Source: an uncultured Chloroflexia bacterium
GTDB lineage: Bacteria; Chloroflexota; Limnocylindria; QHBO01
DNA: 64,000 nt
Direction of reading: 5' to 3'
NCBI GenBank assembly: GCA_963847375.1
Contig: CAWJZO010000001.1
Location: 1,083,904 to 1,147,903, forward strand
Position 1 is the stretch's first letter. Each line of letters opens with the position of its first letter. Of this stretch, positions 602 to 26,349 are shown in pieces. Position numbers and translations under genes: made by a program. The notes under the pieces are model-generated. The model worked only from the letters and a program-made list of their open reading frames with translations, did not search any database and had not been told where the DNA came from.

Positions 602-665
602 CCGCGGGCCTGCGCCGCGCGCTGATCTCTGGGGGTCCAGGAAGCTCACCTTCGCTTGCCTGACC

Positions 666-8357: not shown

Positions 8358-8633
8358 TCACTCGCCGCGATGACGAATGATGAGGAACGCCGCGAATCCG
8401 GCGACCGCGACGAAGAGGAGGGTGGCGATGGTGACCTCGATGTCGTCGGGCACCAGATCGGCCCGGATGGCGACGGCCACCGCTGCGGCCACGCCACCAA
8501 TCAGTGCGCCAATTGCCAGCTTGACCACCGCACCATGCCACCCACCGTGGCTGAGCCGAAGCCCGACGAGGGTCAGGCCAACGAGCGACGCGCCAAGTAT
8601 CATGCCGATGACCGCGTTCTGCACCGGGCACAT
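8358..8633 (-). CDS. Small integral membrane protein (3 TM), unknown function
   Basis: Hydrophobic helices (IGMILGASLVGLTLVGL, AIGALIGGVAAAVAVAI, IATLLFVAVAGFAAFLII). The start is uncertain; alternatives are at 8603 and 8687. Confidence 0.45.
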   Translation of the reverse strand: MCPVQNAVIGMILGASLVGLTLVGLRLSHGGWHGAVVKLAIGALIGGVAAAVAVAIRADLVPDDIEVTIATLLFVAVAGFAAFLIIRHRGE

Positions 8634-8650
8634 CCTACCGGCCGATCGAC

Positions 8651-10633
8651 ATGGGCACGCCGGTCCGGGACCGACGCCGCTCGACATATGGAGATCGGCA
8701 CATCGTGAGACGTCTGGCCATCCTGCTGGTGACCGTCATGCTCCTGGCGAGCATCGGTATCGCCTTGGCGCTCGCATCCAACGAGACGAGTGGCCCGACG
8801 GCGAATCCATCCTCGGTTGTCCCCTCCTTCTCGCCCGGCCCCCTCGGCGGCCCTGTGGGTGAGGTGCCTGGGGCGCCGGAGTCGTTCGCGTTCGGAGAGG
8901 GCGGCTCGCCCGACCCCGCGGGCACGGGAGCGCAGAGCCGGCTCTGGTTCAATGACGGCAGCTGGTGGGGCGTGTTCCTGACGAGCAGCAGCGCGGATCA
9001 GAGGATCTTCCGGCTCGACGCGGCGTCGCTCACCTGGGTCGACACCGGCGCCGTGGTGGACGATCGACCCTACGCCAAGATCGACGCGCAGTGGGACGGG
9101 GAGCGCCTGCTGGTCGCGAGCGCCGGGGAGGAAGCCGACGAGCGCCACGCGCTTCGGGTGGATCGGTTCAGCTACAACCCGGCCTCGGGCGAATACCGGA
9201 GGAACGCGAACTTCCCGGTGCCGGTGACCGCCGCGGGGGTTACGGGAGCGACGCTGGCACGCGCCGCCGACGGGCGGCTCTGGGTCGCCTATCGCGACGG
9301 CGACCGACTCATCCTGGACCATTCCCTGGAATCCGACCTCTCGTGGCACGGCCCGATCGCGCTCGACGTCGCGACCGGCCCCGTCGACGCGGTCGCGTTG
9401 GCAGCCGTGGGACGGCGCATCGGCCTCGTCTGGACGCTGACGACGGGAGACTCCCTGCATGTTGCCTGGCTCGACCCTGCGCTGGGGACGGACGGGTGGT
9501 CGGCCGCGGCCCCCGTCCCGGTTCCGGGGCTCGAGTTCGGCGAGGACGAGATCGGGATCGCCGTCGATCGCTCGCCCGGTGCCGAACGCCTGTACGTCGG
9601 GCTCAAGACGAACGCTGGCGAGACGGCCGACCGCAGGCGCCTCGCGCCGCAGGTGGTCGTGGCGGAGCTCCGTCCCGGAGAGGATCCGGCGACGTATCTC
9701 GTCGGCCGCGTCGAGGACCAGCACGGGGGGCCGAGCCTTGTCGTCGATGGCGAGGCTCGATTGCTTCATGTCGTCATGGAGGCGCCAGCCGGCGGAGGCA
9801 CGATCTACCGCAAGACCGCCTCGCTGGACCGTCTCGAGTTCGGTGGCGGTCTCGGGCAGGCGCTCATCCCGGCGACCGAGGCGCTGCCTGGTCTCGGGTC
9901 GCCCACGGCGACGAAACAGAGCGTCGACGGGGGCAGCGGGTTGGTCGTCGCCGCGACGGATCGCGGGGTCGATCGATGGGGCTTCGGCTCACTGGGTGTG
10001 GCTCCCGTCACGGCGGAACCGCCACAGGGCCCAGACGACAGGGCCATGCTCGTCAATTACACCTTCAACGGGCTTGCCGTGGGCGATGATCCCCCGGGAT
10101 GGGAGGTCGACGGCGATCCGCTCCCGGCGTTCACGGTCGTGAGCCTCACCGGATCCGACAGCTCAGCCCGTCTGACCGCGACGACAGCCGATGCGAGGAC
10201 GTGCGCGCGATTTGCCGCCGTCGAGGGCGACGTGCTACGGGCGGGCGCGGACGTGCTGTTCAACGAGCCCTCGACAGGTGACATGAAGCTTCTTCAGCTG
10301 CGAGGGCGCGAGGGAGAAGTCGCCTCGATCCGGGTGCGCGAGGGCGAGGTGGTGTATGCGGACGGCGACACCCGAGTGCGGAGCGGGCTCGTTCTTGAGC
10401 CGGGTCGCTGGTACCGTGTTGTGCTGGGGCTCGATCTTGCCGCGCGGACATTCGGCGTCCAGGTCCGCGACGCGGTCGATGATGCGATCCTGTTGGAAGA
10501 TGCCGGCCTCGCCTGGGCGGCGGAGGTCGAGGCTGTCGACCGCGTGTGTGCCGAGCTGTCGCCGCAACCGGGCCTCGAGCTCTATCTCGATGAAGTGAGG
10601 GTTCGGTCGCGGCTGGCGGAGGGTGAGGGCTGA
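8651..10633 (+). CDS. Secreted/membrane-anchored BNR(Asp-box)-like beta-propeller protein, paralog 1, with a C-terminal lectin/LamG-like domain
   Basis: N-terminal signal anchor. Conserved SRLWFNDGSWWGVF...LDAASLTWVDTG...RFSYNPASGEY block shared with the ORFs at 14586 and 24427, plus degenerate Asp-box-like S/TxDxxxW segments. Confidence 0.7.
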   Translation: MGTPVRDRRRSTYGDRHIVRRLAILLVTVMLLASIGIALALASNETSGPTANPSSVVPSFSPGPLGGPVGEVPGAPESFAFGEGGSPDPAGTGAQSRLWFNDGSWWGVFLTSSSADQRIFRLDAASLTWVDTGAVVDDRPYAKIDAQWDGERLLVASAGEEADERHALRVDRFSYNPASGEYRRNANFPVPVTAAGVTGATLARAADGRLWVAYRDGDRLILDHSLESDLSWHGPIALDVATGPVDAVALAAVGRRIGLVWTLTTGDSLHVAWLDPALGTDGWSAAAPVPVPGLEFGEDEIGIAVDRSPGAERLYVGLKTNAGETADRRRLAPQVVVAELRPGEDPATYLVGRVEDQHGGPSLVVDGEARLLHVVMEAPAGGGTIYRKTASLDRLEFGGGLGQALIPATEALPGLGSPTATKQSVDGGSGLVVAATDRGVDRWGFGSLGVAPVTAEPPQGPDDRAMLVNYTFNGLAVGDDPPGWEVDGDPLPAFTVVSLTGSDSSARLTATTADARTCARFAAVEGDVLRAGADVLFNEPSTGDMKLLQLRGREGEVASIRVREGEVVYADGDTRVRSGLVLEPGRWYRVVLGLDLAARTFGVQVRDAVDDAILLEDAGLAWAAEVEAVDRVCAELSPQPGLELYLDEVRVRSRLAEGEG

Positions 10634-11586
10634 TGCGAATACTCGTGACGGGCGCTGCCGGCTTCGTCGGTTCTCACCTCGCGGAGCGGCTCCTCATCGA
10701 CGGCCATGAGGTTGTCGCTCTCGACTGCTTCACCGACTACTACCCACGAGCTGTCAAGGAGCGCAACCTGGCGGGGCTGATGCGTTCGCCGGGCTTTCGG
10801 TTCCACGAGCTCGACTTGCGCACCGACCCACTGGATGCCGCGCTCGAGGGCGTGGACGTCGTGGTCAACCAGGCGGCGATGGCTGGGCTCATGCGGAGCT
10901 GGACCGACTTCGACAGCTACGTCAGCTGCAACCTGATCGGCCTTCAGCGCCTGGTCGACGCCTCCCGTGACGTGCGGCAGTTCGTCCACATCTCGACCTC
11001 GTCGGTGTATGGCACGGATGCCGTCGGCGACGAGGACACTCCGACGAGGCCGACATCTCCGTACGGGGTCACGAAGCTCGCGGCCGAGAAGCTGCTTCTT
11101 GCGCAGGTCGCCGTGCACGGCTTCCCCGCGACGATCCTTCGCTATTTCTCGATCTACGGGCCACGCCAACGTCCGGATATGGCGTACCACATCTTCATCG
11201 AGGCCCTCATGGACGGCCAGCCGATCACGGTCTATGGCGACGGGCTGCAGTCACGCTCGAACACGTTTGTGACCGACGCCGTCGCGGGCACTGTGGCGGC
11301 GATCGACGGAGCGCGCGTCGGAGAGGTCTATAACATCGGCGGCGGCCAGGAGCTGGGGCTGTTGGAGGCCATCGGCATCATCGCCGACGAGCTGGGCGCG
11401 CAACCCACGATCCGCCATGAGCCGGCACGACCCGGCGACCAGCGTCGTACGTGGGCCGACACGTCCCGAGCGCGCGAAGCCTTCAGCTACCGCCCACTCG
11501 TCGAGCCGGCACACGGGCTCGCCGAGCAGGTCCGCTGGCAAGCCGGGTTGAGGTCCCTGGAGCCGGCCAGATCCTCAGGCGCCTGA
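10633..11586 (+). CDS. NAD-dependent nucleotide-sugar epimerase/dehydratase (SDR family)
   Basis: MRILVTGAAGFVGSHLAERL (Rossmann GxxGxxG) and catalytic YxxxK (SPYGVTKLAAE). ATGA overlap with the upstream propeller gene. Confidence 0.85.
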   Translation: MRILVTGAAGFVGSHLAERLLIDGHEVVALDCFTDYYPRAVKERNLAGLMRSPGFRFHELDLRTDPLDAALEGVDVVVNQAAMAGLMRSWTDFDSYVSCNLIGLQRLVDASRDVRQFVHISTSSVYGTDAVGDEDTPTRPTSPYGVTKLAAEKLLLAQVAVHGFPATILRYFSIYGPRQRPDMAYHIFIEALMDGQPITVYGDGLQSRSNTFVTDAVAGTVAAIDGARVGEVYNIGGGQELGLLEAIGIIADELGAQPTIRHEPARPGDQRRTWADTSRAREAFSYRPLVEPAHGLAEQVRWQAGLRSLEPARSSGA

Positions 11587-12195
11587 GCGGCGCGCGACGG
11601 CCATCACGGTCCGCGCGAGAATCCAGATGTCCAGCCGGAACGACATCCGCTCGATGTAATCGATGTCGAGTCGAGCCCGCTCATCGAAGGTCGCCTCGTT
11701 CCGACCGGTCACCTGCCAGAGGCCGGTGAGGCCGGGCATGACCTCGAGGCGCTCGGTGTGCCACAGCTCGTACGTGCTCGCCGCGAACGACGTCGGTCGC
11801 GGGCCGACGAGTGACATCTCCCCACGGACCACGTTGAGGACCTGCGGCAGCTCATCGAGGCTGGTCTTCCGGAGGAATCGACCCACACGGGTCACGCGCG
11901 GATCATCGATGACCTTGAAGTCCGGAGCCGGAACGATGCTCAGGTGCTGGAGGCTCGCCTTCAGCTCCTCGGCGTTCGTCACCATGGTCCGGAACTTGTA
12001 CATCCGGAACCTGCGGCCGTGGCGGCCGGTGCGCTTCTGGGCGAAGAGGATCGGGCCCGGCGAATCGATGCGGATCGCCACCGCGCAGATCGCCAGGGCG
12101 ATGGCGATCAGGGGAAGGAATGCGATGCATGCTGCGAGGTCGAATGCTCGCTTGCCGATCGCGTAGCGAGGCCGGAACGAGAGGACATGCGGCAT
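11575..12195 (-). CDS. Initiating phosphoglycosyl transferase (bacterial sugar transferase, PglC/WbaP C-terminal type)
   Basis: Single N-terminal TM, then the conserved KFRTM...DELPQ...GEMSLVGPRP motifs of the undecaprenyl-phosphate sugar-1-phosphate transferase family. Confidence 0.85.
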   Translation of the reverse strand: MPHVLSFRPRYAIGKRAFDLAACIAFLPLIAIALAICAVAIRIDSPGPILFAQKRTGRHGRRFRMYKFRTMVTNAEELKASLQHLSIVPAPDFKVIDDPRVTRVGRFLRKTSLDELPQVLNVVRGEMSLVGPRPTSFAASTYELWHTERLEVMPGLTGLWQVTGRNEATFDERARLDIDYIERMSFRLDIWILARTVMAVARRSGA

Positions 12196-12198
12196 CGC

Positions 12199-12846
12199 TC
12201 AACCGGTCCTCTCGGAGGACTCTTCTCGCTGGTCCGTCAGGGGTGGCACGAGGCGAACCGGAGCGCGATCGGTGCCGAGCTCTCCGATCGGCCGGAGGTT
12301 GGCCACGAGTGCGCCCGTCGTTGCCCCGCCGCTCGGGAACTCGACGGCCTCGACTCGGTCGAGGGCGGGATCGCCCGGAATGGCGATCCGCAGCCGGCCG
12401 ATAAGCTGCTGCGCCGATTCCAGGCTGGACTCCGGCAGGACGACATAGACGCTACCTTCGATCGACAGCACCTGGTCGATGCTGCGGACCATCAGGGGCA
12501 GTGCTCCGAGGCTGCCGGGCGCCGGTGCCAATCCATCGGCGTTTGTGACGTCGATGCCGGGGAAGCGCATCAGGACGAACGAACGCTCGAAGCGACGCGC
12601 TCGGTCCAGCTCGCGACGGAACGCATCCCATGACCGATGGGACGCGCCAGCCGGCCGCTCCGATCGGCTCGACATCCTCCCCCCGTAGAAGGCGGTCATC
12701 AGACCGCCGAGCATGAGGCCGATGACGCCGAGCATCCCGGCGGTGACCGTCAGGGCTCCGCTCATGCCGGCGTAGTACCCGATGGCGACGCCGACGACGA
12801 CAGCCGAGATACCCAGAGTCAGATTGGACAGCACCGTCCGCTTCAA
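12199..12846 (-). CDS. Membrane-anchored degenerate GGDEF-domain protein (I-site RxxD retained, GG[DE]EF replaced); putative c-di-GMP receptor or regulator
   Basis: Two N-terminal TM helices. The cytoplasmic part, FRRELDRARRFERSFVLMRFPGIDV...RSIDQVLSIEGSVYVVLPESSLESAQQLIGRLRIAI, parallels GGDEF-domain blocks (RARRyg.plsllmiDiD ... RESDxxaRyGGEEFvvllPetdleeA...aerir) but lacks the catalytic GGDEF motif. Confidence 0.55.
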   Translation of the reverse strand: MKRTVLSNLTLGISAVVVGVAIGYYAGMSGALTVTAGMLGVIGLMLGGLMTAFYGGRMSSRSERPAGASHRSWDAFRRELDRARRFERSFVLMRFPGIDVTNADGLAPAPGSLGALPLMVRSIDQVLSIEGSVYVVLPESSLESAQQLIGRLRIAIPGDPALDRVEAVEFPSGGATTGALVANLRPIGELGTDRAPVRLVPPLTDQREESSERTG

Positions 12847-12856
12847 GAGACGACTC

Positions 12857-14281
12857 CTACTCCACCTGGAGCGGCGCGTACGCCTCGATGACGGTAGCCG
12901 TCGAACTGCGCTCGGGCGATGTCTGGCCGATGGGCTCCGTCTCGCCGGTCGCCAGCGCGCCCACCCGAAAGCCTCGCCCGAACGCGGAGTAGTCGAATCC
13001 GAGGGCAGTCATCTGATCCGGGATCAGGGCGCCTCGCCCGTCGACGAGGACCGGGGTCCGCACGGCTGCCCGGACCACGCTCCAGTCGAGGTTGAGGAAT
13101 TCGGGCCACTCGGTGACGAGCCCGATCGCATCCGCACCCTCGACCGCTTCGAGGGCGCTCGACACGACCTCGAGGCCGGGCACCAAGTCGGCCGATCGGA
13201 CCCGCGCCGACTCCATCGGGTCGTAGGCCACGACGGTGGCACCCCCGGCGAGCAGGTGCCGGGCGATGTCGAGCGCCGGAGCGTCGCGCAGGTCGTCCGT
13301 CAGCGGCTTGAACGTCAGGCCCAGTAGCGCCACGCGCTTGCCCTCGAGGGAGCCGCCGGTCAGCTCGCGCACATTCGCGACGAAGTCGGTCCTCTGCCGA
13401 TGGTTGATCTCGTCCACCGCAGACAGGAGAGGCGACGGCACTCCGGCCAACGTGGCCGACTTCACCGTCATCGTCACCTGGTTCGGCAGGCATGACCCGC
13501 CGAACCCGACGCCCGCACGCAGGAACCGGCCTCCGATGCGCGAGTCGAACGCCATTCCCGCGACGACCTGATCGACCTGCGCGCCATACGCGTCGCAGAG
13601 CGCGGCGAGCTCGTTCGCGAAGCTGATCTTCGTTGCCAGGAAGAGGTTGGAGCCGAGCTTGGCGAAGGCGGCGTCGATCGCGGACATCGTCAGCACCGGC
13701 GCGGTGCTCCACTCGTACAGCGCGTTCATCCGCTCCACGCCTCGGCCGTCGGGGTCGTCGATGACACCGAAGATGACTCGCTCGGCCTCGAGGTAGTCGC
13801 GGATGGCGGCGCCTTCGCGTGTGAACTCCGGATTCACGACGGCGGCGATCGGCTCGCGGCCGGCCTGTTCCCGGATCGAGCGCAGGAGTCGCGGAAGCTG
13901 CCGGATGAAGTCCGGCGGCAGTGTCGAGCGCACGGCAAGCACGGCATCGTCCGCCATGTGTGGGACGACTTCGCTCAGGCATGCGAGCATCGTCTCAGTC
14001 TGCCAGCCCCCGTTGCCGTCGTGGGTGCCGACCGCCACGATGACCACGTCGGCACTCGCCGCGGCTTCTCGCCCGGAAGCCGAGAACGCGAGGTGATCGG
14101 ATTCACGCTGGCGGGCGACCATCTCGTGCAGCCCCGGCTCGTAGAACGGGACCGCTCCGTCCTTCAGCGCATCGAGACGAGCCGCATTGACCTCGACCCC
14201 GATCACGTGATGACCGCGTTCCGCGAGGCACGCGGAGGTCACCAATCCTACGTAGCCGAGACCGAATACTCCGACTTGCAT
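12857..14281 (-). CDS. UDP-glucose/GDP-mannose 6-dehydrogenase family protein (nucleotide-sugar dehydrogenase)
   Basis: MQVGVFGLGYVGLVTSACLAERGHHVIGVEV (NAD-binding) and the catalytic region GFGGSCLPNQV (the conserved Cys-containing GGxCxxKD-like block of the family). Confidence 0.85.
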   Translation of the reverse strand: MQVGVFGLGYVGLVTSACLAERGHHVIGVEVNAARLDALKDGAVPFYEPGLHEMVARQRESDHLAFSASGREAAASADVVIVAVGTHDGNGGWQTETMLACLSEVVPHMADDAVLAVRSTLPPDFIRQLPRLLRSIREQAGREPIAAVVNPEFTREGAAIRDYLEAERVIFGVIDDPDGRGVERMNALYEWSTAPVLTMSAIDAAFAKLGSNLFLATKISFANELAALCDAYGAQVDQVVAGMAFDSRIGGRFLRAGVGFGGSCLPNQVTMTVKSATLAGVPSPLLSAVDEINHRQRTDFVANVRELTGGSLEGKRVALLGLTFKPLTDDLRDAPALDIARHLLAGGATVVAYDPMESARVRSADLVPGLEVVSSALEAVEGADAIGLVTEWPEFLNLDWSVVRAAVRTPVLVDGRGALIPDQMTALGFDYSAFGRGFRVGALATGETEPIGQTSPERSSTATVIEAYAPLQVE

Positions 14282-14585
14282 TGGGCAGCAACCCCCGCTT
14301 TCCCTTCTGGGCACGAAGAGTGGTCAGCTCCCCCTGGGTCGAGGGCTTGACCCGGGGCGGAGAGGGGACACTTATTAGACCCGGAAGTACTGGATAGGAC
14401 CCCGAAATATCCGGGGTGAGATGACCTGAGTAATGTACGGGCCGGGACCGGAGTTTACAATCCCTTACTGGCGGCTTATCGCTGGCTTATGTGCACAAAT
14501 CCTTCCAATACAGCACAAACCGTTGCCCGGCGGCACCGACAAACCGTGGGTCGAGGGCGATTCCGGGGGGAAGGACCATCGACCG

Positions 14586-16613
14586 ATGCCCAGAGCCGGG
14601 GTACCATGCGCCGGGTTCATTCGTCCTCATCGGTACCGGGGGGTTCCCTCCTTGTTGCGCATTCGAACGTTCCACCTCAGTCTGGTGGTCGGGCTCCTGT
14701 GGTCGATTCTCGCCATCGGGCCGGCCGTCGCCGCCCCCGGAGATATCGGCCTGGAAGGCCCGTCGTACTCCGGTGCTGCCGCCGAACCAACCGGTGAGAA
14801 GCCCGAGAGCAAGACGTGGTTCGCCGATGGCGTCTGGTGGGGCAGCCTGTGGGACACGGCGAGCTCGCGCTACGAGATCTTTCGCCTGAACGCGGCCGGC
14901 ACGTGGACGTCGACGAACGTGGCGCTCGATGGGCGCGCGAACAGCAGAGCGGACACGCTGTGGGATGGGACGAGACTGTACGTCGCTAGCCACGTGTTCA
15001 GCGAGTCACCGAGCAGCGGGTTCCCCTCGCACCTGTATCGGTTCAGCTACAACCCGTCGACCGACACCTACTCGCTCGACAGCGGGTTCCCGCAGCAGAT
15101 CAACAACGTGCGGTCCGAGTCCCTCGTCATCGACAAGGATTCGACGGGCCGGTTGTGGGCGACGTGGGTCCAGGGCAATAGCGGCAGTCGAACTGTGTTC
15201 GTGAACCGCACACTGGGCGGCGACGTGAGCTGGGGGACGCCGTTCACGCCTGCGGTCTCGGGAACGCAGGTTGCCAATGACGACATCTCGTCGGTGATCG
15301 CCTTCGGCGGCAACAAAATCGGCGTCTTCTGGAGCAACCAGGACGAGGATACGTTCTACTTCGCCTCGCACCAGGACGGGGCGGCCGACACCGCCTGGGG
15401 ATCGGTCTCGACCGTCTTTCCCGGAAGTAGCAACGGGGACGACCATATGAACCTGAAGTCGTTGCACACCGACGGCAGTGGACGCGTCTTCGCCGTCGTG
15501 AAGACGAGCCTCACCGGGCCTTCGACCCCCTCGATCGTTCTGCTCGTTCGCAGTGCGGCCGGGTCATGGCAGTGGCACACGATCTGGACGAAGCAAGTGA
15601 TGCTCACCAGGCCGATCGTCCTTCTCGATACCGAGAATGGGCGGATCCACGCGTTCGCGTCGGACGAGGGCGGTGGCCGGGTCTACACGAAGACGAGCCC
15701 GATCGCCTCGGTCGCGTTCCCGAGCGGGCTCGGGACGACGGTGATGCAGGACGCGTCGCAGAACAACATCAACAACGCCACGTCGACGAAGCAAAACGTC
15801 ACCAGCGCGAGCGGGCTTCTCGTCCTGGCCTCGAACCAGTCCACGAAGCGCTACTGGCACCACTTCGACCCGCTCGGCGGCGGCGGCAGCCCGTCGGGAC
15901 CAACGGCCAGCTTCACCGCCAGTCCGACCGGCGGCACCGCGCCGCTGGAGGTCGACTTCACCGACACGAGCGCCGGCGCACCTACCGCCTGGGCCTGGGA
16001 CTTCACCGATGACGGCGTCGTCGACTCCAATGCCCAGCACCCGAGCCATACCTACACCACCGCCGGCAGCCACACCGCTCGCCTGACGGTGAGCAATGCC
16101 GGCGGGTCCGACGCCACTACCCGCACGATCACCGTCAACCCGGCCGGCGGAGGCGGCGAGCCCATCGCCCCCAGCGATGACACCTACGCCGACTCCGGCG
16201 CGCCGACGGCGATCAAGGGCAACGCGAGGGACCTGCGCGTGCGAAGTGCCTCGAAGCAGCTGCATACCTACCTCAAGTTCACGGTCAGCGGCGCGGGCGC
16301 GGTGGACGGCGCCACCCTGCGGCTGTTCGTGACCGAGTCCAGCGTCGATGGCGGCAGCCTTTACCTCGTGCCCATCAACACGTGGAGCGAGGCCAGTCTC
16401 AACTGGTCGAACAAGCCGGACCCGAGCGGCGGGCCGATCGACACCCTCGGAGCGGTCGCGGCGAACAACTGGGTCGAGCTCGACGTCAGCAGCGTCGTGA
16501 CCGGCGACGGCACCTACAGCTTCGTGCTCATCAACGCCAGCAACGACGTCGCACGCTTCAGCTCCAGCGAGGCCGCCACCGGCGACCCCGAGCTCGTCCT
16601 CAGCGCGCCCTGA
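14586..16613 (+). CDS. Secreted BNR/Asp-box-like beta-propeller protein, paralog 2, with a PKD domain and a C-terminal DNRLRE-like carbohydrate-binding domain
   Basis: A good SD (GGGGGAAGGA) precedes the ATG at 14586, then a long signal peptide. Shared KTWFADGVWWGSLW...RFSYNPSTDTY block. PKD motif ...ASFTASPTGGTAPLEVDFTDTS...WDFTDDG...HTYTTAGSHTARLTVSN.... C-terminus: WSEASLNWSNKP (DNRLRE-like). Confidence 0.75.
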   Translation: MPRAGVPCAGFIRPHRYRGVPSLLRIRTFHLSLVVGLLWSILAIGPAVAAPGDIGLEGPSYSGAAAEPTGEKPESKTWFADGVWWGSLWDTASSRYEIFRLNAAGTWTSTNVALDGRANSRADTLWDGTRLYVASHVFSESPSSGFPSHLYRFSYNPSTDTYSLDSGFPQQINNVRSESLVIDKDSTGRLWATWVQGNSGSRTVFVNRTLGGDVSWGTPFTPAVSGTQVANDDISSVIAFGGNKIGVFWSNQDEDTFYFASHQDGAADTAWGSVSTVFPGSSNGDDHMNLKSLHTDGSGRVFAVVKTSLTGPSTPSIVLLVRSAAGSWQWHTIWTKQVMLTRPIVLLDTENGRIHAFASDEGGGRVYTKTSPIASVAFPSGLGTTVMQDASQNNINNATSTKQNVTSASGLLVLASNQSTKRYWHHFDPLGGGGSPSGPTASFTASPTGGTAPLEVDFTDTSAGAPTAWAWDFTDDGVVDSNAQHPSHTYTTAGSHTARLTVSNAGGSDATTRTITVNPAGGGGEPIAPSDDTYADSGAPTAIKGNARDLRVRSASKQLHTYLKFTVSGAGAVDGATLRLFVTESSVDGGSLYLVPINTWSEASLNWSNKPDPSGGPIDTLGAVAANNWVELDVSSVVTGDGTYSFVLINASNDVARFSSSEAATGDPELVLSAP

Positions 16614-16712
16614 GGCGGCTCGGCGCAAGGCACGCGGCGGCCTTCGGGCTACCATGACCCGCGGCCGTCCCGGCTCGGGCCGGCCGGCAACGTACATCCG
16701 AGCAGAGGGGCG

Positions 16713-18934: not shown

Positions 18935-20199
18935 CCGACCGGCCGGCAAGGCGACGCCGGGTCGCCTACATCACGTCGCGCTTCCCGAAACTGTCGGAGA
19001 CGTTTGTCCTGTACGAGATTCTCGCGATCGAGGAGCTCGGGATCGACGTGGACGTGTTCGCCCTCCTGCGCGAGTCGGAGCCGGTGCATCACCAAGAGGC
19101 CGCCCGTCTCGCGGCGCGGGCGTTCTCGGTCAGGCTGGCGTCGTTGCCGGTCCTATCGGCGCAGTTGCACTGGCTGCGCCGCCGACCCCGCGCCTATCTC
19201 ACCGCATGGTGGGATGCCATCCTCGGCAACGTGCGCTCTCCGCGATTCCTGGTGCGAGCCCTCGCCGTCGTTCCGCTGGCCGCGACATTCGCCCGTCGCA
19301 TGAGCGCGTCGGAGGTGGAGCACATCCACGCGCACTGGGCGACGCATCCAACGTTGGCTGCCTACGTCGCGAGCCGTCTTACCGGGATCCCATACAGCTT
19401 CACCGGACACGCCCACGACATCTATGTCGATCGAACGATGCTGCGCGAGAAGATCGCCAGCGCGGCGTTCGTCGTGACCATCTCCGAGTTCAACCGCCGC
19501 TTGCTCGAGCGGCTGTATGGGGCCGTTGCGCGCGATCGCGTCGTCGTCATCCACTGCGGGACCGATCCGCACCTGTTCGAACCGCCGAGCGATCGTCCCG
19601 AGGGGCCCTGGACGATCGTCTGCGTCGCCAGCCTGCAGCCGCAGAAGGGCCAGCGCCACCTCATCGAGGCGTGCCGCCGCCTCGTCGACGACGGCATCGA
19701 CCTGCGCTGCCTGCTGGTCGGCGACGGCGAGACGAGGGGCGACCTGGAGCAGCGCGTCCGTGCCGCGGGGCTCGGAGATCGGGTCGTCCTCCTCGGGCAG
19801 CAGCCGCGTCACCGGGTCGTGGAGGTCCTCGGCGCGGCCGACGCTGTTGCGCAGCCGAGCGTGGTCCTGGCGAGCGGGAAGATGGAAGGCATTCCGGTCG
19901 CGCTGATGGAGGCGATGTCGATGGAGCGCCCTGTCGTGGCGACCGACATCTCGGGGGTCGCGGAGCTCGTCGAGGACGGCGCCACGGGCATCCTCGTTCC
20001 GCCAGGCCACCCGTCCGCCTTGGCATCCGCGCTCCGTACCCTCCATGACGACTCCGCCTTGGCCGCGCGACTGGGGCGTGCTGGCCGCCGGCGCGTCATC
20101 GAGGACTTCGACCTCACCCGCAGCGCGAGAGAGCTTGCCGGGCGCTTCGCCCGCACCGGACCACGTCCGATGCCGCCCCGCTCCGGCCGGGCAGGCTGA
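18931..20199 (+). CDS. Glycosyltransferase family 4 (GT-B fold)
   Basis: GTG start overlaps the previous stop (GTGA). Motifs VVLLGQQP...SGKMEGIPVALMEAMSMERPVVATDISGVAELVEDGATGILVPPG. Confidence 0.8.
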   Translation: MTDRPARRRRVAYITSRFPKLSETFVLYEILAIEELGIDVDVFALLRESEPVHHQEAARLAARAFSVRLASLPVLSAQLHWLRRRPRAYLTAWWDAILGNVRSPRFLVRALAVVPLAATFARRMSASEVEHIHAHWATHPTLAAYVASRLTGIPYSFTGHAHDIYVDRTMLREKIASAAFVVTISEFNRRLLERLYGAVARDRVVVIHCGTDPHLFEPPSDRPEGPWTIVCVASLQPQKGQRHLIEACRRLVDDGIDLRCLLVGDGETRGDLEQRVRAAGLGDRVVLLGQQPRHRVVEVLGAADAVAQPSVVLASGKMEGIPVALMEAMSMERPVVATDISGVAELVEDGATGILVPPGHPSALASALRTLHDDSALAARLGRAGRRRVIEDFDLTRSARELAGRFARTGPRPMPPRSGRAG

Positions 20200-20332
20200 A
20201 AGCCCGTGCTGTATCCTTTTCGGACAAGCTCGATGTCTCCCTGCCGAGCCAGTGGCTACGCCAGGAAGTAGGACCGAGACAGTGCCGCAAGCCGGAAACC
20301 GCCCGCCGACCACTCGCCGCCGACGGCTCCGC

Positions 20333-21625
20333 TCAATGGTCATCTCGATGGTGACCGCCATCACTGTCGTCGGTGCCGGTATCACCGTCGCGTCTGTCTG
20401 GGCGCGTTCATCCGCCGATGCCCCTGACGGAGAGCGGACGGTTGGCGCTCGCGAGCCCGCGTCGACGCCAGGTGACGAGGACGAGTCGCTTGACTTCGTT
20501 CAGCACTCGGCACTCGTGCCGGTGCCGATGCCGACGCCCGCCCCGTCTCTCGAGCTGACGCCATCTACGGTACCGATCGTGCCGACCGGTCCCTCTCAGG
20601 GTGGTGGCGCAGGCCCGGTCTCGGGATCTGGTGGGGCGTTCGCAGCTGCGGACCCACGAGCGGCCGGTGACTTCATCCTCATCTCGCGGAGTCGCCTCCT
20701 CTCGTTGCCGACAAGTGGCGCAGCGTGGAGCCAGCTCAAAGCGGTGGCGGACTCGAACCCTGGTTCGCCCAACCTCTCGGACATGAACCAGGAGAACAAC
20801 GTCCGGGTGCTGGCCAAGGCGATCGTGTTCGCTCGCACCGGAGACGCGAAGTATCGCGCGGACGTGATCGCCAATCTCAAGGCCGCAATCGGCACCGAGG
20901 GCGGCAGCGCGCTGGCCCTGGCGCGTGAGGCCGCCGCCTACGCGCTGGCGGCCGACTTCATCGGCCTGTCCCAAGCCGATTCGTCCTTCGACTCGGGGAC
21001 GTTCCGTCCGTGGCTGGGATCGCTGCTCACCAAGTCGATCGAGAGTCGGACCCTCCGGACCACGCACGAGGAGCGTGCGAATAACTGGGGTACGCACGCC
21101 GGCGCAAGTCGCGCGGCGATCGCCGCGTACCTCGGGAATACGGCCGAGCTCGCGCGCACCGCGCAGGTCTTCCACGGTTGGGTGGGCAACCGCAGCGCAT
21201 ACGCCGGCTTCAGCTTCGGCGATCTGTCGTGGCAGCCCAATCCATCGGCGCCGGTGCCCGTGCTGCCCAGCGGCGCGCGGATGGGCGGCCAGGGCGTCGG
21301 TGGGGCACTACCGGAAGAGATGCGCCGCGGCGGTGACTTCCAGTGGCCTCCGGCGGGGACCGACTATCCATGGGGCGCCCTCGAGGGTGCCGTGCTCCAG
21401 GCGGAGATCCTCCACCGATTCGGATACGACGCATACAACTGGGGTGACGCGGCCCTCCTGCGTGCCGTGCGCTTCTTGTTCGATACGGCCGGCTGGCGGC
21501 CGGCGGGCAACGATCAGTGGGTATTCTGGGTCATCGACTACCGGTACGGATCCGGATATCGGGCGGGCGCGCCGATTTCACCGGGCAAGAACTTCGCATG
21601 GAGCGACTGGCTCTACAGCCGGTAG
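20333..21625 (+). CDS. Secreted (signal-anchored) alginate-lyase-like / alpha-alpha-toroid polysaccharide lyase family protein
   Basis: N-terminal RRRRLRSMVISMVTAITVVGAGITVASVWA signal anchor. An ERANNWGTHAG block resembles the NNH(S)YW catalytic motif of alginate-lyase/heparinase-like lyases. The start is uncertain (ATG 20333; upstream alternatives exist). Confidence 0.4.
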   Translation, partial: SMVISMVTAITVVGAGITVASVWARSSADAPDGERTVGAREPASTPGDEDESLDFVQHSALVPVPMPTPAPSLELTPSTVPIVPTGPSQGGGAGPVSGSGGAFAAADPRAAGDFILISRSRLLSLPTSGAAWSQLKAVADSNPGSPNLSDMNQENNVRVLAKAIVFARTGDAKYRADVIANLKAAIGTEGGSALALAREAAAYALAADFIGLSQADSSFDSGTFRPWLGSLLTKSIESRTLRTTHEERANNWGTHAGASRAAIAAYLGNTAELARTAQVFHGWVGNRSAYAGFSFGDLSWQPNPSAPVPVLPSGARMGGQGVGGALPEEMRRGGDFQWPPAGTDYPWGALEGAVLQAEILHRFGYDAYNWGDAALLRAVRFLFDTAGWRPAGNDQWVFWVIDYRYGSGYRAGAPISPGKNFAWSDWLYSR

Positions 21626-21633
21626 GCTGAGGA

Positions 21634-22026
21634 TCAGCCCAGCGCAACGAGCGCATAGAGGCGAGCCTCCGTGCGACTGAGCACCCAGCCATCCACGACG
21701 ACCGTGCTCCCGGCGGCGTAGTCGGTGCGGATCCGGGCCGCCACCTCGCGTGACGCGCGGCGCGCGGAGGTCGGTACGGTCGGGCCTACGAGGTCGCGGA
21801 CCAGGACGACCCTTCGCGCTTCCGTCGGGTGGGCAGCGAGATAGGAACGACCGAGGCGGGCCGCGCCCTCGCCGTCGGTGATAAGCCCTCGCAGAAGGCT
21901 CGCAGCGTCTCGCCCCGACAGGCGCTCGATGAGCGTCAACAGGCCGCTGGGTCCAAAAGCCACTCCAGCCGCGACGCCGGCTGCCGCAATGAGGAGGCGG
22001 CGTCGGGTGAGGTCGACCGCCGTCAT
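21634..22026 (-). CDS. Small Tat-signal subunit (gluconate-2-dehydrogenase subunit-3-like) partner of the GMC oxidoreductase
   Basis: Start ATG at 22024-22026 overlaps the GMC gene TGA (ATGA). The N-terminus MTAVDLTRRRLLIAAAGVAAGVAFG is a twin-arginine signal. Confidence 0.6.
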   Translation of the reverse strand: MTAVDLTRRRLLIAAAGVAAGVAFGPSGLLTLIERLSGRDAASLLRGLITDGEGAARLGRSYLAAHPTEARRVVLVRDLVGPTVPTSARRASREVAARIRTDYAAGSTVVVDGWVLSRTEARLYALVALG

Positions 22027-23717
22027 CAGGCTGCCGCCTCCAACAGGTGGTCGGCGAGGCGAAGCGCGAGGGCCACGATCGTCAGCGTCGGCGTCGCCGA
22101 TCCCGCGGTCGTGAACACCGAGCTGCCCGCGACGTAGAGGTTGCGCATGCCATGCACGCGGCAGTCGCCGTCGACCACGCCCTGACGCGGGTCCTCGTGC
22201 ATGCGTGTCGTTCCCATGTGATGCCAACCGCCAGCGAGGTCCGCCGGCCATTCTGCGGCATTCTCGTCGATGACGAGGCGCAGGCGCCCCAGGTCCGCCC
22301 GACCGAGCTCCGCACCGAGGAGCTCCGTCGCTCGCACGACGCTGGCCCGGTCGGCGTCCGACAGCTGCCAATCGAGCTCGACCATCGGCATCCCGAGTGC
22401 GTCGCGGTCCCGACCCAGACGGACGCGCGAGTCCGGATTCGGTGTCGGATCGATGCGCGTGGTCACGTCGACCGCCTCGACGGGGATTCGCCCGATGGAT
22501 TCGCCGAACAGGAGCGTCGCGATGTCGCCGAATACCTCGGGGATCAATGCAGCGCGCCCTTCGTCACCGATCGCTGCAGCGGCGACCTCGGGGATCGGGA
22601 CGGGAATCGGTCCACCGAAGGCCAGGAACCGACGCCAGCTCGTCAGGTCGTCGGCGATCCGGTTCGCGTCGTCGAGGAAATCAGCGTCCTCTTCGGCGCG
22701 ACCCGTGAGCCGGCGCAGGGCAGCGCGATCCTCGGCGCCGACGGCGCGGTTGTACCAGGCCGGGAACCGGGGCTCCATCCGAAACTGGATGTCGGCGAGC
22801 TCCTCGACCTCGCGCACTTCCTCGGGCAGCGCCAGGTAGCCGGTGATGCGCGAGTCGCCGGCGTCATGGGTCAGGTAGAACCGCAGGTCGATCTCCGGAT
22901 CGAATGGCACGAAGGTCGCGCCGATGAAGCGCGGGTGCTCGAGGAAGTACCGACCGACAAGGTCCTCGCCATTTCCGACACCCGCCGGGAAGCGATCGGT
23001 CGATGCGAGGAGGAGCCGCGGGGTCTCGATGCCGCCCGCGGCGAGCACGTAGTGTCGAGCGCTCGCGCCGAACTCGACACCTGAGAGGGTGTTCAGCCGA
23101 AGGCCCGAGACGGCGTCGGCCGCGTCGTCGATCTCGATCTCGACGAGGTTGCTGTTCAAGACGACGCGCGCGCCCGACGCCTCGAGATCGTCGCCGTAAT
23201 TGCGCGAGAACCGCCGCCGCGTCGCGCGGACGTTCTGTACGATCCGCGTCTCGACGCGGGCCGCATCCAACGGCAATGGGGGATACGCGCTGCGTTCGAC
23301 CCACACGTCGGTGTCCCACTCGTCTGAGGGCAGTCCGCAGAGCTCACCGGCCCGCGAGTAATACGGATCGAGATCCGAAATGCCGATCGGCCAGCCGCTG
23401 CCCGGGATCCATGGCCGCGCGGACAGATCAAAGGCCTCGAATGGCCGGCACGTCCCGCCCCAGTGGTTGGTCGAGCCACCGAAGTACCGAAGCCGGGCTC
23501 CAGCGAGATCGAAGTAGGGCAGGCCGACGTTCATGCCGCGATAGAGGAGCTGCGTCTCCGTCTCAGCCGCGAGATCACCACTCTCGACCAGCAGCACACG
23601 CATCCCGGCGCCGTCGAGCGCCATCGCGAGCGTGATGCCCGCCGCCCCAGCGCCCACGATGGCGACGTCGGCCTCGAGCACCTCTCCGTTGCCGACACTG
23701 CGGCCATCCACGAACAT
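22026..23717 (-). CDS. GMC-family FAD-dependent oxidoreductase
   Basis: N-terminal FAD fold DVAIVGAGAAGITLAMAL, GGSTNHWGG, and C-terminal GWHHMGTTRM...VDGDCRVHGMRNLYVAGSSVF. Confidence 0.85.
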   Translation of the reverse strand: MFVDGRSVGNGEVLEADVAIVGAGAAGITLAMALDGAGMRVLLVESGDLAAETETQLLYRGMNVGLPYFDLAGARLRYFGGSTNHWGGTCRPFEAFDLSARPWIPGSGWPIGISDLDPYYSRAGELCGLPSDEWDTDVWVERSAYPPLPLDAARVETRIVQNVRATRRRFSRNYGDDLEASGARVVLNSNLVEIEIDDAADAVSGLRLNTLSGVEFGASARHYVLAAGGIETPRLLLASTDRFPAGVGNGEDLVGRYFLEHPRFIGATFVPFDPEIDLRFYLTHDAGDSRITGYLALPEEVREVEELADIQFRMEPRFPAWYNRAVGAEDRAALRRLTGRAEEDADFLDDANRIADDLTSWRRFLAFGGPIPVPIPEVAAAAIGDEGRAALIPEVFGDIATLLFGESIGRIPVEAVDVTTRIDPTPNPDSRVRLGRDRDALGMPMVELDWQLSDADRASVVRATELLGAELGRADLGRLRLVIDENAAEWPADLAGGWHHMGTTRMHEDPRQGVVDGDCRVHGMRNLYVAGSSVFTTAGSATPTLTIVALALRLADHLLEAAA

Positions 23718-23794
23718 CGCTTGCTACCGCAGTCCGGCGGGCGACTCGGCGAGAATGACGGTCGCGAACCTGCCTCGCATTCTACGCTGCCCGC

Positions 23795-24343
23795 ATGCAG
23801 GAACCCCACGACGAGGCAACGCCCGGCGTGCGTGCGTCCTTCGTGCGCCGACTCGTGGCGTTCCTGCTCGATGGCGTCGTGCTCCTCGTGGCGGGCTTTG
23901 CCCTCCTCACGCTCACCACGGCAGCCATCGGTCCCACCGTGCTGGTGGAACTGGAGTCGGCCGCGAGCCCGGTGTCGGAGGTCCGTGCCTGGCGCGTCGT
24001 TCTCAATGCCGCACTGCTCGCGGCGCTGAGCGGCCTGTACTTCGTCATCTCATGGTCACGCTTTGGCTGGACGCCCGGGCAGCGGCTGTTCCGGCTCGTC
24101 GTGCGCGTGGCGTCGCCCGCTGCGGGGATCAGCCCGCGACGGGCCGTGCTTCGGTGGTCGCTGCTGGGAGCACCGCTGGGTCTTGCCGCAGCGCTGACCG
24201 TGAGCGTGCCGCTGCTGTTCCTTGCCGTCCTCGTTGTGTCCTTCGCATGGTTCGCCGTGCTGGTTGTGACCACGCTGCTCAGCCGAACTGGCCGTGGCCT
24301 TCACGATCGGCTGGCCGGCACCACGGTCATCCGCCGCGCCTAG
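23795..24343 (+). CDS. RDD-family membrane protein
   Basis: RRLVAFLLDGVVLLV...GWTPGQRLFRLVV with 3-4 TM helices (RDD domain pattern). Confidence 0.7.
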   Translation: MQEPHDEATPGVRASFVRRLVAFLLDGVVLLVAGFALLTLTTAAIGPTVLVELESAASPVSEVRAWRVVLNAALLAALSGLYFVISWSRFGWTPGQRLFRLVVRVASPAAGISPRRAVLRWSLLGAPLGLAAALTVSVPLLFLAVLVVSFAWFAVLVVTTLLSRTGRGLHDRLAGTTVIRRA

Positions 24344-24358
24344 AGCCCCAGTGACAAA

Positions 24359-24389
24359 GGACGGGTCCGACAGCGTGTCGAGCCCGTCC
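24359..24389. terminator. Bidirectional hairpin between convergent genes (GGACGGGTC-CGACA-GCG-TGTCG-AGCCCGTCC)
   Basis: Nested inverted repeat about 16 bp after the RDD gene stop and 38 bp after the stop of the convergent SLH gene. There is no U-tract, which is common in high-GC genomes. Confidence 0.4.
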
Positions 24390-24426
24390 AGGTGCCTCGT
24401 TGGCGGTGGTCGCTAGCGGGTCTGCC

Positions 24427-26349
24427 TCACTGGGTCTCCGCCCGATGGAGGAAGGCCGCCATCTGGCCGCGGCTCACGACCCGGTCCGGGCAGTACCTCG
24501 TGCCTGCCGGGTTGCAGCCGGTCGTGATCCCGTTGAAGGCCAGGATGTTGATGTTCCGCTCGTGCGTGTTGCCGTTGTCGTCGGTGAAGGCGTTGACGCT
24601 GCCACCGCCGCTCAAGCCGTACGCCCGCACCAGGAACGTGGCCATCTGGTCACGCTCGACGGGCTCGTCGGGGCAGTACTTCGTGCCGCCACCGCCGCAG
24701 CCGGTCGTCAGCCCGTTGAAGGCCAGGATGTTGATGTTCCGCTCGTGCGGGTTGCCGTTGTCGTCGGTGAAGGCGTTGACGCTGCCACCGCCAGTCAGGC
24801 CGCGTGCGCGCACGAGGAACGTCGCCATCTGATCACGGTCGACGTCGTCCTCCGGGCAGAAGAGGGTGCCGCCCTGGTTGCAGCCCGTCGTGATGCCCTC
24901 GTCATGGATCCACACGATGTCCTCGAAGAACCGGTGGGTGGTGGGCACGTCCAGGAACGGACTGCCGCCACTGCCGCTCAGCGCGAGGAAGCCGTGGTAG
25001 TAGCGATCATTCGTGTCACTGCTGGCGATCGCGAGGAGGCCGCTCGTCGACGTCACCGAATGCTTTGCGGTCGAGACGTCGTTGATGTCGTTCGTTCCGT
25101 CCGCGATGAGCGCGGTTCCAAGGCCGGCGGCGTTGAAGCTGAGGGTGCTCAGCGGAGCCGACTTGTAGTAGATGGCCTGATTACCGCCGCCCGAGCTCTC
25201 CGGGGCCGTGTAGAGCACGTAGACCTGATCGTTCGTCTCGTCGACCACGACCTGAGGGCGCGTCACGGACTGTCCTGCACCGACCACCGTGTGCTCGCTC
25301 CAGTCGCCATTGCTGGCGCGCCGATAGAGCTGGATGTGGTTCGGTCCGTCGTTGGTCTTCAGTGCGGCGAGGATGTCTCCGCCGCTCGTCGCAGTCAGCT
25401 TCAGGTTGATGTGGTCTTCGGTGAAGAGGGTGGAGCCGCTGATCGAGTCACCTTGCGCCCAGGTCGTATCACCCGCGCTGTCGGCGTGGGTGAAGAAGTG
25501 GAACGCAGAATCGGGATCGGTGGCGGGTCGGTGCTCGCTCATGAGCACGCCGACGGAGTCGCCGTCAAACGCGATGATCGCGCTGATGTCGTCAGGCCCG
25601 ATGTTGTCGCCGATCTGGAAGGGCGCGCCCCAGGTGTGCTCGTTCGTCGTCGAGCGGTTGATCATGACTTCGCGGTTCGTGGCGTCGACCGGGTTGTCGA
25701 AGGCGACCCACAGCTGGTTGGTCGAGTCCTTCGCGATCGTCACCGTCTCAGCTGGACCCTGGCCGACGACGAGACCATCGTCAATGTCGAGGTCGCCGTC
25801 GACGTCCGATCGGAAATCGGGATCGATCGTGTACGTGTCGCTTCCGGCGTTGTAGCTGAACTTATAGACGATGATCGGGGCGACGTCAGTGTCACCGTTC
25901 ACCGAAGCCACGTAGAGCGCCGAGCCGTCCCAGAGGTAGTCGCCGTGGCTGCTGTTTCGCGGGTCCACGACGGTGCTCGTCGCGGTCCAGGTGTTGTTCG
26001 CGGCGTTGTAGCGATGGATCCGGTTGTCGTCCGAACCATCGACGAATAGCCCGCCCCACCAGGAGCCGTCGGCGAACCAGACCTTCGACTGCGGCTTGTC
26101 CTCGGTCGGCGAGCCGACGCCGGTCCCGTAGGAATGGTCGATGAACCCTGCGTCGACCGGTGCGGCGATCGTCGGTCGAACGATTGCGAGGAGTGACAGG
26201 AGCAGTGCGGCGGTCAGCGCGAGGAACGCGACCTGCCGACGGCGCGCGTGGGCAGCGGAGTACGGACTGGGCACGAGTGCGGGACCCCCATGTGATGTGT
26301 GATGCTGGCGATGACGGGATGAGGCCATTGCGCCGATAGGTCGCGGCAT
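24427..26349 (-). CDS. Secreted BNR/Asp-box-like beta-propeller protein, paralog 3, with three C-terminal S-layer-homology (SLH) domains
   Basis: Signal peptide RRRQVAFLALTAALLLSLLAIVRPTIAAP. Shared SKVWFADGSWWGGLF...KFSYNAGSDTY block and Asp-box-like DSAGDTTW. Three C-terminal repeats F(L/T)D(V/D)...H...I..L...G(I/L)TTGC......CP(D/E)..V.R.QMA(T/A)FL.RA match SLH. Confidence 0.75.
   Translation of the reverse strand: MPRPIGAMASSRHRQHHTSHGGPALVPSPYSAAHARRRQVAFLALTAALLLSLLAIVRPTIAAPVDAGFIDHSYGTGVGSPTEDKPQSKVWFADGSWWGGLFVDGSDDNRIHRYNAANNTWTATSTVVDPRNSSHGDYLWDGSALYVASVNGDTDVAPIIVYKFSYNAGSDTYTIDPDFRSDVDGDLDIDDGLVVGQGPAETVTIAKDSTNQLWVAFDNPVDATNREVMINRSTTNEHTWGAPFQIGDNIGPDDISAIIAFDGDSVGVLMSEHRPATDPDSAFHFFTHADSAGDTTWAQGDSISGSTLFTEDHINLKLTATSGGDILAALKTNDGPNHIQLYRRASNGDWSEHTVVGAGQSVTRPQVVVDETNDQVYVLYTAPESSGGGNQAIYYKSAPLSTLSFNAAGLGTALIADGTNDINDVSTAKHSVTSTSGLLAIASSDTNDRYYHGFLALSGSGGSPFLDVPTTHRFFEDIVWIHDEGITTGCNQGGTLFCPEDDVDRDQMATFLVRARGLTGGGSVNAFTDDNGNPHERNINILAFNGLTTGCGGGGTKYCPDEPVERDQMATFLVRAYGLSGGGSVNAFTDDNGNTHERNINILAFNGITTGCNPAGTRYCPDRVVSRGQMAAFLHRAETQ
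24531..24844. repeat. Intragenic tandem DNA repeat (183-bp period; two copies with a 78/79-nt near-identical core) encoding consecutive SLH domains
   Basis: Copy A 24531-24661 and copy B 24714-24844. The first 79 nt differ at one position. This produces the artefactual repeated plus-strand ORF 24392-24832. Confidence 0.8.

Follow-up and report, generated by a model that had tools for sequence, protein, structure and literature searches.

Three proteins encoded in a 64,000-nucleotide stretch of DNA from an uncultured Chloroflexia bacterium (hereafter the window) share an N-terminal domain of ~385–400 amino acids that is predicted to fold as a seven-bladed β-propeller, and each carries a different C-terminal tail. 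The genes, designated P1, P2 and P3, are associated with an island of polysaccharide-synthesis genes. The explanation that we favor, with confidence somewhat short of even, is that P2 and P3 may be glycan-processing enzymes of the acidic glycan made by this island, and that P1 would be a degenerate binding partner of an alginate-lyase-like protein encoded alongside. The propeller family appears to be undescribed: it has neither family models nor a solved structure, and the literature on CBM96, seven-bladed lyases and propellers in exopolysaccharide clusters yielded no description of it. The fold class is familiar, as is the modular logic in which a catalytic-type propeller is joined to a carbohydrate-binding module (CBM) or to SLH repeats. 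The new observations are the systematic link to exopolysaccharide clusters and the split between intact and degenerate paralogs.

An earlier reading of this DNA, made from sequence only, had proposed three open reading frames with a common N-terminal module of ~400 amino acids, and all three are present (Table 1). When the N-terminal ~370–420 residues were compared pairwise by BLASTP, P2 and P3 were 37% identical (E = 1e-72), P1 and P2 27% (E = 6e-38), and P1 and P3 29% (E = 2e-31); by this measure the paralogy of the domains is far beyond chance. The motifs quoted in the sequence-only reading recur in the copies as SRLWFNDGSWWG, SKTWFADGVWWG and SKVWFADGSWWG, as IFRLDAA, IFRLNAA and IHRYNAA, and as RFSYNPASGEY, RFSYNPSTDTY and KFSYNAGSDTY. 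Screening of the whole window by tblastn identified exactly three propeller copies and no fourth. Public gene calls start P1 at 8705, 18 codons further in (642 aa), and P3 at 26274, 25 codons further in (615 aa), and agree with the P2 frame in starting at 14586 (675 aa), for which a longer alternative start exists at 14433. Each protein possesses a single N-terminal hydrophobic segment (residues 22–40 in P1, 26–44 in P2 and 39–57 in P3), which fits export. In P1 this segment precedes a linker rich in Pro, Gly and Ser and may serve as a membrane anchor.

A neighbor-joining tree of the extracted domains placed P3 in a clade of SLH- and CWB2-anchored proteins, P2 in a large 'canonical' group with PKD and CBM96 modules, and P1 on a long branch with its own orthologs. 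Each of the three has separate orthologs in relatives at 80–88% identity; the closest relative, at 81%, is an uncultured Chloroflexia metagenome-assembled genome and the others belong to Candidatus Limnocylindria. The description of the genes as triplicated therefore stands in the sense of three homologous copies, but the recent duplication that the word implies is rejected in view of three distinct clades each with orthologs at this level. Judging from the tree, the copies are ancient paralogs.

The shared domain has no Pfam or NCBIfam match in any of the three proteins, and queries of the complete PDB sequence set, made with single sequences and with two profiles, returned accessory domains or noise only and no propeller, in agreement with the earlier statement that no known glycoside hydrolase (GH) family could be assigned. 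The P3 domain was modeled with AlphaFold2 from a 67-sequence alignment. The model is all-β with ~28 strands (pLDDT 92.8, pTM 0.93) that we read as seven four-stranded blades at residues 28–67, 72–113, 128/141–182, 194–242, 248–294, 301–354 and 360–393, with an N-terminal strand (7–11) that closes blade 7 (here and below, residues follow P3-domain numbering). The Asp-box-like turns are degenerate and end in conserved Trp residues (W59, W178, W235 and W288). Thus, the β-propeller with degenerate Asp-boxes foreseen in the earlier reading is borne out by the model, and the three domains are homologous by BLASTP and propeller-like by prediction rather than unrelated to each other or of another fold.

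Foldseek comparison of the model with the PDB returned mostly carbohydrate-active propellers among the top 50 matches. The best superposition was with the polysaccharide lyase (PL) family 25 ulvan lyase (5uam/5uas), which gave a query TM-score (TMq) of 0.58–0.60; the PL42 Rha-GlcA lyase 7esn gave 0.58, PL24 enzymes 0.50–0.52 and GH145 0.52. The GH33 sialidases produced the lowest Foldseek E-values (6.8e-9), yet TMq was 0.45–0.51. The pocket in which PL24, PL25, PL42 and GH145 enzymes work on uronate linkages is central and anterior (PMC8377490). As modeled, the shared domain fits the sialidase or PL24-25-42 type of carbohydrate-active propellers, and no sequence-defined family includes it. The predicted fold has the seven blades of the PL24, PL25 and PL42 enzymes together with a putative anterior central site.

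Placement of this site follows from the conservation pattern. Sixty-six positions are kept at 85% or more across the family and are termed family-conserved. In each of blades 1–7, conserved charged residues are found where the inner strand starts or immediately ahead of it, namely K27, R69/D75, E139, D191-D192, D250-H251, R302 and K367. In propeller enzymes the inner-strand starts mark the entrance of the central pocket. From these strand positions we infer that the charged residues may form one central pocket at the entry face suited to an anionic sugar. The family-conserved His, Tyr and Arg residues are H226, H251, H390, Y104, Y111, Y388, R69 and R302, the last two being the only conserved Arg residues. 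P2 keeps 66 of the 66 positions and P3 all but two. The copies are unequal because P1 differs at 31 of the 66, with changes that include E139T, D146A, D191V, H226L, H251E, K255A, R302G, Y388W and H390F. Among the residues lost from P1, E139, H251 and Y388 are 100% conserved elsewhere and D146, D191, S194 and R302 ~98% conserved. The lost positions vary within the P1 clade (Q, E or D at 251; G, D, A or N at 302; A or S at 146); R69, D75 and K367 are invariant there, and K334 and K27(R) nearly so.

The alginate-lyase-like protein of the island possesses one transmembrane segment (residues 95–113), a long low-complexity linker and a partial match to PF05426; a PDB sequence search with this protein was without match. 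Two relatives of P1, P0152 and P0153 (777 aa), consist of a P1-type propeller with an Alginate_lyase-like domain in place of the ConA-like tail. The propeller in these fusions is 49% identical to that of P1 and has the same degenerate pocket, and the C-terminus of P0153 aligns with the last 315 residues of the alginate-lyase-like protein at 43% identity (E = 2e-77). Moreover, in the related locus L082 the fusion gene fills the P1 slot, flanked by the genes for Wzx and NTP/AAA and, on the opposite side, by those for epimerase, Bac_transf and UDP-glucose dehydrogenase. This classic Rosetta-stone pattern points to the lyase-like protein as a functional partner of the P1 propeller.

The C-terminal tails of the three proteins agree with those read from the sequence earlier, which were a lectin-like tail in P1, PKD and DNRLRE-like domains in P2, and three SLH domains in P3. 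The P1 tail has no Pfam match, but an AlphaFold2 model from an alignment of 27 orthologs is a 15-strand β-sandwich (pLDDT 91.1) whose best-scoring Foldseek match was an accessory domain of BT_1020 (8.9e-10); legume lectins, calreticulin and BoNT HcN also were matched, within a range of 1e-6 to 1e-9. With its curved two-sheet sandwich the modeled tail has the ConA-like lectin/glucanase (LamG) fold, and P0154, a distant P1 relative, shows a weak Laminin_G_3 match. In P2, the CBM96 domain scores 98.2 bits against a PF24517 cutoff of 26 bits and spans profile positions 5–163 of 164, and the tail matches the CBM96 of alginate lyase 7vbo in the PDB (6e-5). The sole characterized member of CBM96 binds alginate, a polyuronate (PMC9971899). 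Residues 456–638 of P3 align to SLH1–3 of Bacillus anthracis Sap in a PDB sequence search (7.3e-8), and the three tandem repeats each end in an xRxQ motif (DRDQ, ERDQ and SRGQ) with the conserved Arg of the TRAE type; Pfam recorded a single SLH match under cutoff (15 vs. 20.8 bits). No CsaB-type pyruvyltransferase (PS_pyruv_trans) was matched among the window open reading frames scanned despite the SLH repeats of P3, and thus the pathway for the SLH ligand may be elsewhere in the genome or the ligand may differ. The earlier suggestion that the proteins are delivered to different envelope locations is a reasonable one.

P1 and P2 are located inside the polysaccharide-synthesis island, and P3 is at its edge adjoining cysS. 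The glycan character of the island, which the sequence-only reading had assumed, is confirmed by genes for a Wzx-type flippase, a Bac_transf initiating transferase, UDP-glucose dehydrogenase, an epimerase, a GT4 glycosyltransferase, an alginate-lyase-like protein and a GMC oxidoreductase. The whole island with the propeller trio is syntenic in loci L001, L003, L004, L006, L014 and L082. The association extends beyond close relatives. The commonest immediate neighbor of family members is UDP-glucose dehydrogenase; GT2, Bac_transf, Wzz, Wzy_C and flippases come next. In a sample of 74 loci from which close relatives of the window were left out, homologs of the exopolysaccharide-synthesis genes of the window occurred within 10 kb of the propeller gene at 35; by gene, there were 22 loci with Bac_transf, 17 with UDP-glucose dehydrogenase, 17 with the epimerase, 17 with NTP/AAA and 12 with an alginate-lyase-like gene. 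Four further independent loci, including one from a cultured Blastococcus, all are in clusters of the Bac_transf/Wzz/UDP-glucose dehydrogenase/Wza type. Of 82 loci, 36 have two or three copies of the family within 10 kb. As a separate observation, NTP_transf_5/AAA homologs are found near the distant propellers as often as UDP-glucose dehydrogenase is (17 of 74 loci each).

The family is large. In an exhaustive profile search of representatives at 50% identity, 3,406 reached E ≤ 1e-3 and 1,912 reached E ≤ 1e-30; the longest has 4,327 aa. More than 556 stretches that encode a relative were located among species-representative genomes by a locus search with a 10-sequence alignment as query. The hosts are mostly Chloroflexota (Chloroflexia and Limnocylindria) and Actinomycetota, the latter including Geodermatophilus, Modestobacter, Pseudonocardia, Nocardioides, Georgenia, Aquihabitans, Rubrobacteraceae, Gaiellaceae and Solirubrobacteraceae, with few carriers in Cytophagia, KSB1 or Terriglobia. 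The propeller is found alone behind a signal peptide, with SLH or CWB2 domains, with PKD, Ig-like, TIG or Fn3 domains plus CBM96 or LamG, and with type IX secretion system sorting tails. True lyase domains are rare: of 48 long members, 3 have PF14099, and P0152 and P0153 have Alginate_lyase. In most members the propeller is accompanied by CBM96, LamG, PKD or Ig modules and by no other candidate catalytic domain. One metagenomic member, P0156 (801 aa), has two tandem propeller domains in one polypeptide. Because the domain is without Pfam, NCBIfam or PDB annotation, members are named only after accessory modules (PKD, SLH or Ig-like).

In the favored explanation, the ligand is likely to be a uronic-acid-containing heteropolysaccharide produced by the Wzx/Bac_transf/UDP-glucose-dehydrogenase island. 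A uronate substrate is supported indirectly by the UDP-glucose dehydrogenase gene beside P2 and at 17 of the 74 distant loci, and by the CBM96 module of P2. P2 and P3, in which the putative pocket is intact, would cleave or trim this product of their own island as a lyase or hydrolase. P2 would be released and kept on the polymer in the matrix through its PKD and CBM96 domains, and the three SLH repeats of P3 would anchor it to the wall. P1 would be tethered to the membrane and, having kept only the basic half of the pocket while losing H251, R302, D146 and D191, may recognize the glycan without catalysis, in concert with the membrane-anchored alginate-lyase-like protein, a partnership proposed because the two are covalently fused in relatives. 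A broader and more tentative proposal, which we consider rather unlikely as a whole, is that this propeller represents a new family of carbohydrate-active enzymes, which most likely would be polysaccharide lyases for uronate linkages. It would be the enzyme for polymer processing, encoded within the cluster, that has been missing from Wzx/Wzy-type exopolysaccharide pathways of monoderm Chloroflexota and Actinomycetota. The family then would comprise catalytic lineages (P2 and P3) and a pseudo-enzyme lineage (P1), with the pseudo-enzyme as the substrate-recognition subunit of a lyase of the (α/α) type.

Several points weigh against catalysis by P2 and P3 on such a polymer. The structural neighbors share just 9–15% sequence identity with the propeller, and TM values of 0.5–0.6 signify a common fold and not a common mechanism. 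Pfam, NCBIfam and PDB sequence searches did not connect the domain to any GH or PL family, and the seven-bladed PLL lectins match the model about equally well (TMq 0.52–0.53). The putative pocket is placed from strand-relative positions rather than from coordinates. Exopolysaccharide genes are absent within 10 kb at about half of the family loci. Finally, the fusions with lyase domains (Alginate_lyase, and PF14099 in a few long members) could equally fit a propeller that is an accessory binder.

The last point leads to the alternative that all three proteins are non-catalytic, lectin-like receptors that hold or organize the exopolysaccharide at the membrane, the wall and the outer matrix, with cleavage left to the alginate-lyase-like protein. 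We regard this as unlikely, although it is the most probable of the alternatives. The presence of PLL lectins among the structural matches fits such a role, as does the fusion of P1-type propellers to a lyase-like domain, and of other propellers to PF14099, in the manner of an accessory module; an SLH domain plus a binding domain is a common layout of wall proteins, and the catalytic motif of no known family was recognized. However, the blades are not sequence repeats with one site per blade as in PLL lectins, and conservation instead indicates a single central site with acidic residues, Arg/Lys and an Asp-His pair that does not vary. Dedicated CBMs (CBM96, LamG) are already present in most members, and a lectin would have no need of them. 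Furthermore, the P1 clade selectively lost and then relaxed H251, R302, D146 and D191 while R69, D75, K334 and K367 were kept, as one would expect if the former set does more than bind.

A pocket rich in Lys and Arg plus Asp and His also would suit esterases that act on a substituent or on a phosphodiester-linked polymer, whether phospho-, sulfo- or acylesterases (for example in removal of phosphate or sulfate, or on teichoic-like linkages). The two type-I phosphodiesterases and the APH-like kinase of the island, the sulfotransferase and APS kinase in the island of a relative (L082), and the occasional phytase-type propeller, Phosphoesterase or Glyphos_transf gene among the neighbors are in line with this proposal. 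Nevertheless, it is improbable: phytase, PON and other propellers of phosphoesterase type appeared neither as sequence matches nor among the top structural matches, and the neighbors are mainly UDP-glucose dehydrogenase, glycosyltransferases and Bac_transf rather than teichoic-acid genes. Marginally less probable again is a mainly structural role without ligand-specific function, for example with P3 as an S-layer or wall-scaffold subunit. SLH-anchored proteins of ~600 amino acids often are S-layer subunits, and the P3 type is conserved beside cysS in relatives. In contrast, polar residues that stay invariant from phylum to phylum are rare in S-layer proteins, whereas this domain has them, tracks exopolysaccharide clusters, and occurs both as a stand-alone secreted protein and in CBM-rich multidomain proteins of up to 4,327 aa. 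The sialidase-like activity suggested in the sequence-only reading, as GH33-type or other hydrolases of nonulosonic acids, is the least probable of all and was rejected. Bacterial sialidases have the lowest Foldseek E-values, weak BNR_2 matches (4e-4) occur in 2 of 67 relatives, the Asp-box-like turns end in Trp, and the IFRL motif is reminiscent of FRIP. But the model has seven blades and not six, it superposes better on PL25, PL42 and PL24 than on GH33, none of the three copies matches Pfam BNR, BNR_2 or Sialidase at E ≤ 1, and the Arg of the FRIP-like IFRL/IHRY motif falls short of 85% conservation. Genes of a sialic-acid pathway of the NeuB/NeuA type were not found among the window open reading frames scanned.

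The propeller domain makes a strong candidate for a new family of the CAZyme type. If the domain is catalytic as favored for P2 and P3, it would define a new CAZy-type family and would account for the trimming, release or remodeling of acidic exopolysaccharides by monoderm Chloroflexota and Actinomycetota. The domain is widespread and recurs in exopolysaccharide and capsule clusters of phyla that are abundant in soil and freshwater. The pocket-intact (P2 and P3) and pocket-degenerate (P1) paralogs of one island offer a ready experimental contrast, and the proposals can be tested in cultured carriers from Geodermatophilus, Modestobacter, Blastococcus, Pseudonocardia, Nocardioides and Georgenia.

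Table 1. Positions of the propeller genes, their domains and the surrounding island genes in the window.
Feature	Coordinates	Strand	Composition or basis
P1	8651..10633	+	Putative N-terminal signal-anchor, Pro/Gly/Ser linker, divergent propeller, ConA-like tail
P1 propeller	8882..10015	+	~Residues 78–455; divergent copy
P1 C-terminal ConA-like lectin/glucanase β-sandwich (predicted)	10046..10621	+	AlphaFold2 pLDDT 91.1, Foldseek
P2	14586..16613	+	Signal peptide, canonical propeller, PKD, CBM96
P2 propeller	14733..15890	+	All 66 family-conserved positions kept
P2 PKD	15906..16136	+	PF00801 4.2e-14, PF18911 2.5e-13; PDB PKD domains
P2 CBM96 (DNRLRE)	16164..16604	+	PF24517 5.9e-28; PDB 7vbo, 8wab
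P3	24427..26349	-	Signal peptide, canonical propeller, three SLH repeats
P3 propeller (modeled copy)	24967..26163	-	Seven blades; AlphaFold2 pLDDT 92.8, pTM 0.93; Foldseek
P3 three tandem SLH repeats	24436..24966	-	Sap SLH match; NCBIfam SLH-containing tail; repeats read directly
Alginate-lyase-like protein, membrane-anchored	20045..21625	+	PF05426 2.2e-11
Island remainder	3766..24343	.	Polysaccharide-synthesis genes; synteny in relatives
Wzx-like flippase	5331-6968	-	
NTP_transf_5/AAA (thymidylate-kinase-like)	6890-8242	-	
NAD-dependent epimerase	10633-11586	+	
Bac_transf initiating transferase	11575-12195	-	
UDP-glucose dehydrogenase (uronic acid source), adjoins P2	12857..14314	-	
APH-like kinase	16713-17747	+	
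GT4 glycosyltransferase	17555-18934	+	
GMC oxidoreductase	22026-23717	-	
RDD membrane protein	23795-24343	+	

Other features of the island and its flanks were noted. Just upstream are two paralogs of type-I phosphodiesterase/nucleotide pyrophosphatase at 2-790 (-) and 1301-2842 (-) that are 33% identical, and downstream are housekeeping genes (cysS, fatty-acid synthesis and others). Between the Bac_transf and UDP-glucose dehydrogenase genes, an open reading frame of 215 codons at 12199-12846 (-) specifies a protein with two to three N-terminal transmembrane segments and no Pfam match; L082 has a 200-aa open reading frame in the corresponding slot. The open reading frame at 18645-20048 (+; 467 aa) overlaps the end of the GT4 gene, has no Pfam match and contains one hydrophobic segment. 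It resembles (42%) another GT4 gene that occupies the corresponding position in L001, and thus it probably is a divergent glycosyltransferase with a later true start. A role for it as Wzy polymerase is doubtful, given the single hydrophobic segment and the resemblance to the L001 gene. The GMC oxidoreductase and RDD protein genes are located between the lyase-like gene and P3 in an order that is kept in L001, L003 and L004; it is conceivable that the oxidoreductase is a secreted sugar oxidase. The syntenic island of L082 (positions 1-9556) contains in addition a sulfotransferase, APS kinase, DHH phosphoesterase, Wzy_C and GT2, which suggests a sulfated acidic glycan there. The P2-like gene of L082 appears split into four short open reading frames and could be a pseudogene or reflect assembly frameshifts.

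Among known systems, the PL25 ulvan lyase (PLSV_3936) resembles the propeller family in its seven blades and acts on an anionic polysaccharide that contains uronic acid by way of a central anterior pocket. However, identity is 9–11% and there is no relationship between hidden Markov models. The residue set of PL25 is Arg204, Tyr188, His123 and His143 (PMC8377490). Moreover, PL25 is catabolic and belongs to marine ulvan-utilization loci, whereas the propeller family is found in biosynthetic clusters of monoderm lineages from soil and freshwater. PL42 and the former GH145 (FoRham1, 7esn; BT3686, 5muk; Pfam BNR_4) likewise have seven blades with BNR-like turns, and their substrate is a uronate (Rha-GlcA). 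GH145 includes members with His-to-Gln changes (PMC8377490), and the loss of a key His is paralleled by the P1 clade. In contrast to PL42, the propeller proteins have no BNR_4 (PF15892) match, and the conserved His residues are in blades 4, 5 and 7, whereas the catalytic His85, His105, Tyr150 and Arg166 of PL42 are in blades 2–3.

The GH33 sialidases of Porphyromonas gingivalis (8gn6) and Pseudomonas aeruginosa (3h6j) share Asp-box-like turns and frequent fusion to lectin domains or CBMs with the family (Foldseek ~1e-8), but differ in blade number, in their lower TM values and in nonulosonic-acid context, and are without a Pfam link to it. Three proteins of Bacillus phage G, gp424, gp425 and gp427 (BFVD G3MAG5, G3MAG6 and G3MAG8), gave TMq values of 0.63–0.68 with a root-mean-square deviation of 4.8–5.6 Å, the highest TM in any library searched and above every PDB entry. 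These proteins, which are uncharacterized and 9–13% identical to the propeller, may be phage receptor-binding or depolymerase modules of propeller fold.

AlgL, PslG, PelA and BcsZ are secreted or periplasmic polymer-cleaving enzymes that are encoded in the biosynthesis operon of their own substrate, where they control chain length, release or clearance of the polymer. The proposed likeness of P2 and P3 to these enzymes is a functional analogy only. The folds are unrelated and the enzymes belong to diderm Proteobacteria. Moreover, unlike these systems, the window combines three differently anchored paralogs with a separate PL5-like protein.

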